Made by a program: the position numbers and the translations under genes
Source of the DNA: Parcubacteria group bacterium Gr01-1014_31
GTDB lineage: Bacteria; Patescibacteriota; Patescibacteriia; Buchananbacterales; GWA2-38-13
Assembly: GCA_007376135.1 (NCBI GenBank)
Contig: VMFR01000001.1
Span: forward strand, 142,554 to 206,553
DNA: 64,000 nt
Direction: 5' to 3'
Shown here: positions 31,215 through 62,067 of the stretch, piece after piece
Position numbering within the stretch: position 1 is the first letter of the stretch
Layout of the letters: every line of letters starts with the position of its first letter
The notes under the pieces: model-generated
What the model saw: the letters and a program-made list of their open reading frames with translations, nothing else
Database searches by the model: none
Told to the model about the DNA's origin: nothing

Positions 31215-31820
31215 CTATTCCTGCACGGTGACGGAGCGCAGCACGACGTCTTCCGTCGGTCGGTCATTCGCGTCCGTCGCCACCTTTTCAATGGCCGCAA
31301 CCACGTCCATTCCCTCCACGACCATTCCGAAGTTCGTGTGCTTGCCGTCCAACCAATCGGTCGCCGCCTTGGTCACAATGAAGAACTGACTGCCGTTGGT
31401 ATTCGGGCCGGCGTTCGCCATCGCCAGCGACCCGCGCACTAATTTATGCTCGTTGATCTCATCCTCGAAACGGTAGTCCGGTCCGCCGGTACCCCAGCGC
31501 GATTTGGCGGCCAGATCCTTGCTCAGCGGATCGCCGCCCTGGATCATAAAATCGCTAATGACGCGGTGAAACCGCGTGCCGTCGTAAAAGCCTTCCCGGG
31601 CCAGTTTGACGAAATTGTCGACGGTCTTTGGCGCGTCCGAGCGGTAGAGCTCGACCACGATCGTCCCCTTGCTGGTAACCAATGTTGCACGCATAGTTGT
31701 GGCAATTGGCGTCGGCGTCGGAGTGGGCGTCACCGCCACCCCGCCGGCCGGCAGATTAGAATTTTTTACGCAGCCGGCGATGAGGACGGCCGCAATGAGA
31801 AGAAATGATCGTGGTCGCAT
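31215..31820 (-). CDS. Cyclophilin-type PPIase, predicted lipoprotein
   Basis: LIAGC lipobox; FHRVI.DFMIQGGDP, MANAGPNTNGSQFFI, WLDGKHT. Confidence 0.93.
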   Translation of the reverse strand: MRPRSFLLIAAVLIAGCVKNSNLPAGGVAVTPTPTPTPIATTMRATLVTSKGTIVVELYRSDAPKTVDNFVKLAREGFYDGTRFHRVISDFMIQGGDPLSKDLAAKSRWGTGGPDYRFEDEINEHKLVRGSLAMANAGPNTNGSQFFIVTKAATDWLDGKHTNFGMVVEGMDVVAAIEKVATDANDRPTEDVVLRSVTVQE

Positions 31821-32019
31821 AGTATTCTGTATTAACTATCCCCAAGCCATACACCGTTTCACCCTTGACGGGCCTCACCCTGCCCATCTCGCGTTTTTGA
31901 ACAGTGCAATATTGGGGATAAAGTAATAAACTGCCTTTTCTGACCGTCGATGCACGCGCTTTGTCCCGCTCCATCCTGGGGGGAAATCGAACCTTCATAC
32001 TGGGCTCTCCCACACATTG

Positions 32020-32090
32020 CTGGGGGGGAAGGAATCGAACCTTCATTCGCAGCTCCAAAGGCTGCTGTCCTGCCATTAGACGACCCCCCA
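32020..32090 (-). tRNA. tRNA-Gln(TTG), intact, no encoded CCA
   Basis: TGGGGGG TC GTCT AATGGC AGGAC A GCAGC CTTTGGA GCTGC GAAT GAAGG TTCGATT CCTTC CCCCCCA G. Confidence 0.95.
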
Positions 32091-32199
32091 GCAATGTGTG
32101 GGACCTTGCCCGACTCCGCGCCTGCCCCGTCGTATGACGGGGCCCTGTTTTACCCCACACCTTTCGACCTTAAATAGCAGAGCTACTTTGCTTGCCTAC

Positions 32200-32270
32200 C
32201 CGCGGGAGCAGAACTCGAATCTGGATTCACGGCTCCAAAGGCTGCTGTCCTGCCCTTAGACGATCCCGTA
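32200..32270 (-). pseudogene. Degenerate tRNA-Gln(TTG)
   Basis: Same D and anticodon loop pattern as the intact copy, but mismatches in the acceptor (A-C), anticodon (A-C) and T stems (C-C), and A53 in place of G53. Confidence 0.75.
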
Positions 32271-32359
32271 GTTATGGAAGCGATAGTACTAAAGGTCAAA
32301 AGGTGTGGAGCGAGGACGACCCCCCCCAGGACGGGACGCAACGTCCACCGGTACCGGCA

Positions 32360-32587
32360 TCAACTGAACCGCACCGCGTTATAGATCTTCCTGGCAGCAA
32401 AGTACATGACGAAGGCGAAAAAGACTCCCAGATACCCGAAGGTGCCGACCTTGAGCGGCAGCGAAATGTGTTGGCCGACGATGAAGTTGACGACTTCAAG
32501 CACTAAGAGCACGCCCATCAGGATCATCACGATGAAGATGAGCATGACCACGGTCAGAATGGTTTCCAAAAGCCGGCCGGCGTGCAT
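32360..32587 (-). CDS. Small two-TM membrane protein
   Basis: 75 aa hydrophobic ORF with a TTGACG-N17/18-TACGCT promoter-like sequence upstream (about 32602-32630). Confidence 0.65.
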   Translation of the reverse strand: MHAGRLLETILTVVMLIFIVMILMGVLLVLEVVNFIVGQHISLPLKVGTFGYLGVFFAFVMYFAARKIYNAVRFS

Positions 32588-32637
32588 AGGTACGAAGTGG
32601 TAGCGTAGCGGGCGGGGGGCGAAACGTCAATCCCGCC

Positions 32638-33552
32638 TCAAACTTTCAGGTAACGGCGCACGGCGAACACCGATCCCACCATATTTAGCGCCGACATTCC
32701 CAGCAGTTGCGAACCGAAGATGGCCACAAAGTTCTCGCGGAAATAGCCAGCCAGATCGAGCGGTACGCCGGTAAAGAAATCCTGAAGATACGGCTGCACC
32801 GCATTCAGCAACGGGAATGTGACCGCCACAGCGAGTCCGGTCGCGCACAGCGCGTACAGCACGCCCTCCAGCACGAACGGCGCGGTGATGAACGCGTTGG
32901 ACGCGCCGACCAGCTTCATAATGCCGATCTCGTCGCGGTGCGTATAGATCGCGACGCGGATGGTGTTGAACACGATCAGCGTGGCGATCAGGACGAACAG
33001 CGCCGATATCGCGATCCCCGCCTGGTTAATGCGGTCGGCGATCAGTCGGATCTCGTTGATCGTACGCTGGTGGTCCTTATAGTTCTCGTCGCTGACCAGA
33101 TCGCGGTACGGCGAATGGTTGAGCACCTGGATGATCTCCGGGTAGTCCGAGGGGTGTTGTGCGGTCACCACCAGCGTCGCTCCCAGCGGGTTGTCGCCCA
33201 GCTCCTCCAGAGTCTCCAGGATGGCAGCGTCACGGGCGTGCCGCTGGCGGAATTCTTTCATCGCATCGTCGGCGGTCACGAGCGTGATGGCGGTCACCTG
33301 TGAAAGCTTGCCCAAGTAGTCCTGCACCTCTTTGACCTTCGGCGTGTCCACCACCGGGTCAAAGTAAATGCTGACGTCGATCTTTTGCTCGAGGGAGGTA
33401 ACGGCGGAATCGGCGACGACATTGAGCGCCAGCAGCGCATTGACCGTCAACGACGCCAGCGCGATGATGCTGACGGTCACCAGCGACAGCCAGAAATTGC
33501 GCCAGAACCCTTGCCAGGCGAATTTAATGACGCGGTAGATGGTCACGAGCAT
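32638..33552 (-). CDS. ftsX: Cell division permease FtsX
   Basis: NPLGA, IVFNTIRVAIYTHRDEIGIMKLVGASNAFITAPF. Confidence 0.92.
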   Translation of the reverse strand: MLVTIYRVIKFAWQGFWRNFWLSLVTVSIIALASLTVNALLALNVVADSAVTSLEQKIDVSIYFDPVVDTPKVKEVQDYLGKLSQVTAITLVTADDAMKEFRQRHARDAAILETLEELGDNPLGATLVVTAQHPSDYPEIIQVLNHSPYRDLVSDENYKDHQRTINEIRLIADRINQAGIAISALFVLIATLIVFNTIRVAIYTHRDEIGIMKLVGASNAFITAPFVLEGVLYALCATGLAVAVTFPLLNAVQPYLQDFFTGVPLDLAGYFRENFVAIFGSQLLGMSALNMVGSVFAVRRYLKV

Positions 33553-33557
33553 ATGCT

Positions 33558-34244
33558 TCAACTCAACCGATAGCGCCCAACCGCCTCATCGGAGGTCAGT
33601 GTGCCCTGATCAAGTACCAGCACACGGCGCCGGATCTGATTAACCCTCCCCTCGTCATGGCTGACAAACAGCACGGTCGTACCGATCTGGTTGATCTTCA
33701 GCAATAACTCGATGATCTCTTGCGAGGTGGCCGTATCCAGGTTGCCGGTCGGCTCATCCGCCACCAGGATCTTGGGACCGTGGGCGAGCGCCCGTGCGAT
33801 CGCGACGCGCTGCTGCTCGCCGCCGGAAAGGTGGCGCGGGAAACGGTCGTGCTTATCGGCCAACCCGACGATCTTGAGCACCTCGGGGACGATCTTGCGG
33901 ATACGCGAGGGGCGCGCTCCGATCACCTGCATCGCGAATGCGACATTCTCAAAAACGGTCTTCTTTTGCAATAATTTGTAATCCTGGAAAACGACACCGA
34001 TCTGCCGCCGAAGGTAAGGCACTTCACGAGACCGGATGTGCGTAATGTCCCAACCGCCGACGACCACCTGCCCTTCGCTCGCCCGCTCTTCGGCGGTCAG
34101 GATCTTGACCAGCGTGGTTTTTCCGGTGCCGCTCTTGCCAACGATCGAGATGAATTCACCCGCCAAAACCTCGAAAGAAACGTTGGCCAAAGCGACCGTG
34201 CGCTCAGGGAAATAGATTTTGGATACGTTGCGGAAGATGATCAT
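33558..34244 (-). CDS. ftsE: Cell division ATP-binding protein FtsE
   Basis: [38 protein letters not shown]. Confidence 0.93.
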
Positions 34245-34267
34245 GGGTTTTGAGGAACGCGCACGGC

Positions 34268-34305
34268 TTGAAATTTCTACCCCAGCGTGCGTATACTGGT
34301 ATACT
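34268..34305 (+). promoter_or_regulatory. Probable promoter(s) of the Gly/Thr tRNA cluster
   Basis: TTGAAA-N18-TATACT and a second TGgTATACT extended -10. Confidence 0.55.
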
Positions 34306-34357
34306 GCTGTCCCAACGGCATCGGGTCAAGGGATAAGTCTATTCCCGGCCGCCACGC

Positions 34358-34548
34358 GCGGGATTAGTACCATGGTAGTACGTCGGCTTCCCTCGCCCCT
34401 CACCTTTACGATTGGCTCTCTGCGGGTGTAGTACAGTGGTAGTATGCTAGCTTCCCAAGCTAGAGATGGGAGTTCGATTCTCCTCACCCGCTCCAGGTAA
34501 AGGTGTGGGGGCAAGCAAAAGACGCGAGTTCGATTCTCGTATCCCGCT
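34358..34548 (+). pseudogene. Outer interrupted tRNA-Gly(CCC) shell (exons 34358-34392 and 34513-34548)
   Basis: GCGGGAT TA GTAC CATGGTA GTAC G TCGGC TT CCC | 120-nt insert | AA GCAAA AGAC GCGAG TTCGATT CTCGT ATCCCGC T; intact acceptor, D and T arms, mismatched anticodon stem. Confidence 0.85.
34422..34495 (+). tRNA. tRNA-Gly(CCC), intact with CCA, nested in the outer Gly shell
   Basis: GCGGGTG TA GTAC AGTGGTA GTAT G CTAGC TTCCCAA GCTAG AGAT GGGAG TTCGATT CTCCT CACCCGC T CCA. Confidence 0.95.
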
Positions 34549-34589
34549 CGCTGCCGCGGTTCGGCAGGATATTCGCGCGGTTGCCTTAG

Positions 34590-34808
34590 GCCGAAGTACT
34601 TTCACATCTTGCCTTGCCGGAGTAGCTCAGCCGGTAGAGCAGTGCTTTCGTAAAGCAAAGGTCGAGGGTTCGAGTCCCTCCTCCGGCTTGGCAAGATGTG
34701 AAAGATGCCGATCATTGTGGGTTTCCCGCCGTTCTCCTCTTTCGGTTATTGAAATATAGGGAGGAGGGACCCCGCCGACGGCGGTGGCGACTCCCACCTT
34801 CGGCTCCA
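34590..34808 (+). pseudogene. Outer decayed tRNA-Thr-like shell
   Basis: 5' GCCGAAG-TA (34590-34598) pairs perfectly with 3' CTTCGGC followed by T-CCA (34798-34808); eroded T arm GTGG-CGACT-CCCAC. Confidence 0.7.
34616..34688 (+). tRNA. tRNA-Thr(CGT), intact, no encoded CCA, nested in the outer shell
   Basis: GCCGGAG TA GCTC AGCCGGTA GAGC A GTGCT TTCGTAA AGCAA AGGTC GAGGG TTCGAGT CCCTC CTCCGGC T. Confidence 0.95.
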
Positions 34809-61590: not shown

Positions 61591-62032
61591 GCTGTGGATA
61601 GCCAGGCGGTCGCTCCGATACACAATCGGAGAGGAAAGTCCGAACACCCTGGTTGTCAATTGACAATCTGTCGCGGTAGTGGGTAACGCCCACCCGGGCC
61701 GCAGCAATGCGGCTTGAGGACCAGTTCCACAGAGACCATACTAACCCCGAAGGGGTTATCCCGAGCGACGCCCGCAAGGGCGGAGTCGAGGGATCTCCCA
61801 TTCAGGGCAAAACGTGAAAAGTGTGGCGAGGTCATTGGCTACAAGTGGGAATTCCCGGTAGCTGACGGCTACGCTACTCCGCGCCCAGCGATGGGACGCG
61901 CGTGGTAAACTCTACCTGGTGCAATGCCAAGTTTGGTCGGCAGCATGAGGCCGCCAGCAATGACGGTCCCAGAGAGATGATCGCCACCCGCCTTCGGCGG
62001 GGACAGAATTCGGCTTACCGGCTATCTGCAGC
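61591..62032 (+). ncRNA. rnpB: RNase P RNA
   Basis: GAGGAAAGTCC, CACAGA, GGTAAAC and ACAGAA-TTCGGCTTA conserved regions; P1 GCTGTGGATAGCC/GGCTATCTGCAGC. Confidence 0.93.
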
Positions 62033-62067
62033 AATAAAAAACCCCGCCTCAGCGGGATTTTTTATTG
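62032..62067. terminator. Bidirectional terminator after rnpB
   Basis: CAATAAAAAA-CCCCGC-ctca-GCGGGA-TTTTTTATTG. Confidence 0.8.

Follow-up and report, generated by a model that had tools for sequence, protein, structure and literature searches.

The analysed window is a stretch of 64,000 nucleotides from the genome of Parcubacteria group bacterium Gr01-1014_31 (8 contigs, 1.34 Mb, 60% GC), covering positions 142,554 to 206,553 of contig VMFR01000001.1 (assembly GCA_007376135.1); positions given below are those of the window unless a contig is named. It contains four tRNA cassettes, in each of which a tRNA gene is enclosed by complementary arms and lies inside a broken tRNA gene. They occupy a Gln locus (minus strand) and a Gly-Thr locus (plus strand), which stand on either side of ftsX/ftsE. 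This raises the question of what the arms are and how one tRNA gene came to lie within another. From sequence comparison, we consider it quite probable that an element of about 300 bp, which codes for a small nuclease, has the shared arms as its terminal inverted repeats, and that the Gly and the decayed-Gln cassettes (probably also the intact-Gln cassette) are gene-less forms that replace tRNA genes and are likely mobilised by the nuclease in trans. The preliminary description had proposed the ends of a non-autonomous mobile element with tRNA cargo and an enzyme acting in trans. This proposal is supported, and a small GIY-YIG nuclease, encoded between the same ends elsewhere, is the candidate enzyme.

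Ends of the nested tRNA cassettes

Complementary arms had been reported for all four cassettes, and all four stems are present; three of the arm pairs extend over 20 nt (100%), 22 nt (86%) and 27 nt (89%), with the Gly arms taken from the sequence and its fold. The reported identity of 13/17 between the starts of the Gly and the degenerate Gln cassettes is exact. The further claim, that one motif terminates all four, stands for two of them. The arms were scored with a weight matrix made from 124 element ends, which came from loci picked by their protein and not by the motif (see below). The Gly cassette (34393..34512, plus strand; cores at 34396-34407 and 34499-34510) reaches 18.5 of 21.3 bits. 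Cassette A (32149..32314, minus strand; cores at 32153-32164 and 32299-32310), with its decayed tRNA-Gln (about 32204-32276, minus strand; 85% identical to a type still intact in the relative G005), reaches 16.3 of 21.3 bits. These two cassettes share the ends of one family. Cassette B (32008..32103, minus strand) consists of an intact tRNA-Gln(TTG) within the perfect arms TCCCACACATTGC, scores 5.9 bits (per-site p about 1e-4) and is probably a drifted member of this family. Its arm matches the common variant TCCCACACCTTT at 10/12 positions, and G001 has the A/G wobble of the family at the same position. The Thr cassette (34599..34704, plus strand), in which long arms surround a replacement tRNA-Thr(CGT) at 34616-34688, has an arm that matches TCCCACACCTTT at 8/12 positions. 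It is a true nested cassette whose ends could belong to another family or represent a decayed member of this one; common ends are not established for it. When 331 genomes were searched with a pattern for the Thr and intact-Gln arms, the exact Thr arm was found on both sides in no other genome among the matches listed, while the TCCC variant of the main family was found in 33 genomes (reversed control, 5). The compensatory changes that had been cited for a common recognition signal are weak evidence, as one arm copying the other could also produce perfect arms.

In its strict form, the end motif reads CCCC(A/G)CACCTTT...AAAGGTG(T/C)GGGG, and this form shows the enrichment near tRNAs that had been predicted. 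All 14 of the 14 exact genome-wide matches to the 11-mer CCCCACACCTT are within 300 nt of a tRNA, in zones that make up 2.3% of the genome; at one mismatch, this applies to 18 of 29. The prediction did not hold for the loose form in the window, where the 17 matches at two mismatches are not above chance (14.0 expected). Inverted pairs of CCCCACACCTT flank Met, Pro(CGG), Pro(GGG), Arg(GCG), Leu(CAG), Gly(CCC) and the decayed Gln, and one pair is empty; variants of the motif flank Arg(TCT), Leu(TAG) and Val(TAC). With the end matrix, both arms reach at least 4 bits at 7 of 47 tRNAs, compared with 0.0004 of random places. A gene-less pair of family ends also occurs away from any tRNA (C3:483252-483293). 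Relaxed ARAGORN runs that allowed introns returned only noise.

The two ends have different outermost four bases, CTTG in one case and TGAA in the other, and they occur in either orientation relative to the tRNA. They are therefore ends at the DNA level. This bears on the other origin that had been suggested for the motif, namely a processing site for RNase III or Mini-III, which would have evolved around tRNAs as a host RNA signal. The arms do extend the acceptor stem and fold stably, and the genome encodes RNase III. However, the same sequence stands around nuclease genes and at -35 boxes, in either orientation; relatives have the same tRNAs without arms; and rRNA leader stems, where the motif might have been expected, lack it, with no site of at least 10 bits at the 16S or 23S genes of the source genome. 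We thus consider such a signal very improbable as the origin of the arms.

The gene-bearing element and its nuclease

One end sequence is common to the nested tRNAs and to small elements with a GIY-YIG gene, which links the two. In the relative G002, the ends of the tRNA cassettes from the source genome (CTTG.../...TGAA) enclose a GIY-YIG gene that is interrupted by a single stop; this copy lies within the D-loop of a dead tRNA-Val. The interpretation of the CTTG/TTCA flanks as IS91-type ends, integron attC or tyrosine-recombinase att sites was dropped once the GIY-YIG parent had been found. Among 401 class-level genomes, the end pair at a distance of 200-420 nt was detected at 10 loci in 9 genomes (reversed control, 0). 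Nine of these loci are outside the source genome; seven have one GIY-like open reading frame (ORF) of 86-92 amino acids, one has a nested tRNA-Leu and one has neither. A scan of a species collection at a gap of 258-288 nt returned 64 elements in 63 loci, which by their unchecked bin labels are mostly from Patescibacteria, with some from Omnitrophota, Bdellovibrionales, Elusimicrobia, Nitrospirae and Planctomycetes. The ORF is complete in 55 of the 64, and 63 match a profile built from those 55, which is circular for these and independent for the 8 broken ones. The gene-bearing element thus defined is about 300 bp long, and its sole gene codes for a GIY-YIG nuclease of about 85 amino acids. The Pfam domain PF01541 was found on all four proteins tested.

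The circularity of a motif-based selection is avoided when loci are chosen by the protein alone. Such a selection from metagenomes gave 80 loci, 66 of them distinct, and inverted ends, mostly with the family motif, are present at 62 of the 66 (control: 2 of 300 random stretches). Their 124 ends have the consensus CCCC(G/A)CACCTTT. The residues Y5, Y16, G18, R26, Y48, R61, E62, K66 and K76 of the nuclease are invariant in 40 copies at about 50% identity. Its structure model has a pLDDT of 91.9, and its neighbours in fold and sequence, which are also its nearest relatives of solved structure, are UPF0213 and Slx1, both branched-DNA nucleases. Only generic GIY-YIG clusters were found in the Protein Atlas, and two nuclease proteins had no match in NCBIfam. 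In a viral collection, the protein had only 3 weak matches, and none of the 27 matches to a 16-mer of the ends had a tRNA; one had a loose partner 2.1 kb off, which was taken as chance.

The nuclease gene might merely be a passenger. Inverted ends with a short target duplication are the signature of DDE transposases, and both are found here (see below). In addition, the interior of the element is exchangeable, being the gene, a tRNA or a few bases. The element could thus be a unit like a miniature inverted-repeat transposable element (MITE), moved by a conventional transposase, with the GIY-YIG gene and the tRNAs as passengers. An example of such a helper is an IS1380-like DDE enzyme, with CC ends and duplications of 4-5 bp. 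We regard this explanation as unlikely. It is at odds with the invariance of the catalytic-type residues in the 40 copies, and the variants of the element ends follow the protein tree (6 changes, 22 when shuffled), although kinship alone could yield the same. Of 51 adjacent convergent end pairs, found among the 150 matches listed of 174 in 31 order-level genomes, 50 span at most 307 bp, and the one long pair represents two separate cassettes of the window; a longer parent element was not seen among these pairs. None of 10 loci with PF13701, the IS1380-type domain and the one DDE family examined, carries a family end. GIY-YIG is all that was found inside the ends, with none of the known transposase classes (DDE, HUH, serine, tyrosine, DEDD). 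The source genome has no Y1/HUH transposase, and its two tyrosine recombinases have no link to the ends (the search did not extend to other DDE families). It also codes for a retron-like reverse transcriptase of 325 amino acids with an FIDD motif, beside a helix-turn-helix gene (L331, C3:510200-511500), which is far from tRNAs and not tied to the ends.

The phage T4 protein SegB is a free-standing homing endonuclease, and its GIY-YIG gene is associated with tRNA genes. The element resembles such homing endonucleases in this association, and four of the five small GIY-YIG genes in the source genome abut tRNA genes. A nearby free-standing GIY-YIG gene might cut an intact tRNA gene, with repair copying the cassette and the ends hitch-hiking from one old insertion. 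That a cassette is common to some orthologous loci would agree with such gene conversion. However, the same ends occur in the D-arm, the anticodon loop and the T-loop of different tRNAs and in both orientations, which conversion from one donor could not attain. Also, conserved inverted ends delimit the element gene, which is found at unrelated sites and has no single cognate site, whereas recognition of their own ends is not a property of homing enzymes, according to a superfamily survey (PMC1564403). A study of GIY-YIG inserts in rRNA genes of the Candidate Phyla Radiation (CPR) likewise sets them outside homing (PMC11270868). Homing-type conversion thus appears quite improbable to us. The source genome additionally has an intact GIY-YIG gene between another end pair, CACCCCGTTAGAG (L051, C8:17026-17300). 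The corresponding site in G002 has no more than a short hairpin, whose outer bases are the same, and in G079 and G248 this end type carries tRNA-Pro.

Insertion sites and replacement of tRNA genes

Direct repeats of at least 4 nt were found at 40 of 63 junction pairs (shuffled pairings: mean 12.6, maximum 21) and at 37 of 54 protein-chosen loci (shuffled 8.2, maximum 16), with a boundary slack of up to 2 nt in tests and controls. In the one case checked closely, the element in G019, they are a true 4-bp target duplication. TCAA is found twice around this element and once at the orthologous sites in G030, G027 and G018 (the site in G029 is unreadable), and G030 carries an element with 86% identity elsewhere. 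Gene-less forms range from 29-bp hairpins to multicopy units of 125-135 bp. Besides tRNAs, the insertion targets are promoter boxes, pilin leaders, RNase P RNA and rRNA; members that lack a duplication have taken the place of a helix in one of the last two.

Several of these targets were inspected individually. In many genomes (loci L066, L076, L110, L117, L142, L219, L304, L305), the ends replace the P3 helix of RNase P RNA, before the AGGAAAGTCC core; the RNase P gene of the window (61594-62033) has no element end. Helix tips in 16S and 23S rRNA genes are replaced at L061, L069, L083 and L113. At L136 (G027) and L016 (G025), miniatures are inserted in frame in pilin leaders, and by eye the right end and the duplication rebuild the G-F-T-L motif. 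Two subfamilies are distinguished by their targets (L238, L259, L260, L271, L289, L291), one at TTGACA -35 boxes and the other at TTATCCAC-like sites, which we take to resemble DnaA boxes. Gene-bearing elements at the 5' ends of tRNAs (L300, L302) have 7-11 nt duplicated, and the right end rebuilds an intact tRNA start.

For 30 tRNA-containing cassettes, the best match of the flanks is to the amino-acid family of the cargo in 28 cases and to its anticodon in 20; these cassettes include several orthologs and are not independent, and one mismatch is due to a neighbouring intact Thr. Young cassettes have cargo identical to the shell (L184, 52/52 and 17/17; L192, 20/20 and 36/36). In others (Gly in the window, Leu(TAG), Ala in G001), the cargo is of a different sequence type with the same anticodon. 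The same anticodon on a different tRNA body favours a survival filter, rather than guidance by homology, as the source of the cognate match. Insertion points are D-arms, anticodon loops and T-loops, where usually 2-4 nt (by eye) and sometimes a whole arm have been replaced.

An assembly artefact is excluded for positions 31700-34548 of the window, which an independent contig from a public sequencing run covers with 0 differences; contigs of related strains extend over the Gln and Gly cassettes as well. No excision joint assignable to the source organism was found in contigs from sequencing runs. At the Gln locus, the outer tRNA-Gln is dead. Its 3' fragment (31976..32007, minus strand; variable loop, T arm and 3' strand of the acceptor) is identical to the intact Gln at 26/30 positions, and its 5' fragment is located at 32315..32329 (minus strand). 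Inside this shell are cassette B, with the tRNA-Gln(TTG) at 32019..32090 (minus strand), a small GC-rich hairpin insert of another repeat type (32124..32143) and cassette A, which was inserted in the D-loop. At the Gly locus, the 5' half of the ancestral tRNA-Gly(CCC) (34358..34392, plus strand) stops at the anticodon, the cassette is inserted in the anticodon loop, and the 3' half follows at 34513..34549 (plus strand). The replacement tRNA-Gly(CCC) (34422..34495, plus strand) is of another sequence type than the split gene (27/35 and 31/38 identical). At position 34400, within the cassette, the contigs of related strains have the consensus base. Unsplit versions of the broken Gly gene are found in the relatives G001, G003, G004 and G009 and, more diverged, in G011. 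G001 has its own Gly copy within related arms, in the T-loop. In G003, it is the cargo type of the window that is split, with the ancestral type inside it. The ancestral tRNA-Thr(CGT), unsplit in G001, has its 5' fragment (positions 1-9 of the tRNA) at 34590..34598 (plus strand) and its 3' part at 34715..34808 (plus strand), which a hairpin inserted in the T-loop (34724-34787) interrupts a second time.

For Gln(TTG), Gly(CCC) and Thr(CGT), the ARAGORN tRNA list of the genome has no intact copy other than the working gene; therefore, an insertion would survive only with matching cargo. A group I, group II or spliced tRNA intron was rejected, as the halves are decayed, target bases are lost and an intron core is lacking. 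Rfam detects only tRNAs and RNase P in the window.

The hairpin in the Thr gene belongs to a second repeat family, which splits T-loops of dead tRNA shells also on contigs C3, C5 and C7. One of its sequences, GGCGGTGRCGANTCCC, has 6 occurrences, all within 400 nt of a tRNA, and this also holds for 9 of the 12 occurrences of another, GGTTTCCCGCC. The dead Ile(GAT) shell on contig C5 (180920-181240) has separate inserts in the D-loop, anticodon loop and T-loop and mimics a multi-intron tRNA; dead shells with similar multiple inserts are found at the Glu, Pro, Leu and Thr(GGT) loci. In tRNA genes without an encoded CCA, many acceptor stems are extended by perfect, unrelated arms of 8-16 bp (by eye, uncounted).

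Proposed mechanism, known systems and significance

We propose that the nuclease, which may be a branched-DNA cutter like Slx1, recognises the stem that the two ends form by pairing in single-stranded DNA. It would nick donor and target, and host repair would complete the joint. At tRNA arms, the cuts may flank the loop, whereby 2-4 nt or a whole arm would be lost instead of duplicated. A cassette would persist only if its cargo makes up for the single-copy tRNA that was destroyed. Foreign and Russian-doll copies could then result from later transfer between lineages and from repeated insertion. On balance, we lean towards the view that this would be a new class of transposon, and the smallest self-contained one, in which a GIY-YIG nuclease of about 85 amino acids acts as the transposase on its own paired ends, while gene-less forms acquire entire tRNA genes, insert them in the cognate tRNA gene and so serially overwrite the tRNA genes of CPR bacteria, often with foreign copies.

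Several observations weigh against an element driven by its nuclease. Whereas the gene-bearing form has a 4-bp duplication, most of the tRNA cassettes have a deletion and fixed flanks of 4 nt, and those of the window have lost target bases and show no duplication; their insertion route may thus differ. In the cassette spacers, 25 queries gave no clear remnant of a nuclease gene and 2 marginal matches. The source genome has no nuclease gene between family ends, its five small GIY-YIG genes being beside tRNAs or between another end pair. The Thr arms score -4.0 bits (per-site p about 3e-3), which is not significant over the about 20 positions searched. Finally, we know of no strand-transfer step for a hydrolytic GIY-YIG nuclease.

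Prophages and islands with a tyrosine recombinase integrate in tRNA genes and rebuild the gene from a carried fragment. The cassettes resemble them in being inserted in tRNA loops and in leaving a working tRNA; they differ in that the whole tRNA is inside the element and both old halves are outside. With insertion sequences and MITEs, the element has in common the terminal inverted repeats, the 4-bp duplication, full and gene-less forms and scattered sites. It differs from them by its length of about 300 bp, by having a GIY-YIG gene only, with no DDE, HUH or recombinase gene, and by forms with a tRNA as cargo, which disrupt the cognate gene and substitute for it.

The Ssn proteins, single-stranded-DNA nucleases with NTS/SRM hairpins, are similar to the element nuclease in being single-domain GIY-YIG proteins of about 90 amino acids that are tied to a cognate inverted repeat (PMC11893778). 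A likeness of NTS-ssnA-NTS to an insertion sequence was pointed out by the authors (Chenal et al. 2025, PMC11893778). In the Ssn system, each flank has its own hairpin of 20-50 nt, whereas the element has one arm per side, with the arms pairing together, and a target duplication (PMC11893778). The SRM hairpin pattern was found in 0 of 64 element flanks. The words "tRNA" and "Patescibacteria" are absent from the text of the Ssn paper (PMC11893778). The GIY-YIG inserts in CPR rRNA genes are portrayed as scattered and non-intron (PMC11270868). They resemble the family in that some of its members replace 16S and 23S rRNA helices. The study does not describe inverted ends, target duplication or tRNA forms, and neither "inverted repeat" nor "tRNA" occurs in its text (PMC11270868). 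The element class appears to be undescribed: no description was found in the literature searched, most subscription papers being outside it, and supplements of the Ssn paper may list such proteins. The GIY-YIG superfamily survey left open whether other members are parasites (PMC1564403).

If the proposal is true, GIY-YIG chemistry would be added to the transposases of bacterial insertion sequences, and a very common family of small "hypothetical" nucleases related to Slx1 would obtain a concrete role. With its length of 300 bp, an enzyme of 85 amino acids and defined ends, the unit could become a compact tool for DNA insertion. A single element would account for the non-intron GIY-YIG inserts in CPR rRNA genes, for long P3 helices of RNase P RNA, for hairpins in pilin leaders and for nested tRNAs. 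Moreover, tRNA genes, which are usually held to be vertically inherited, would be exchanged between lineages.

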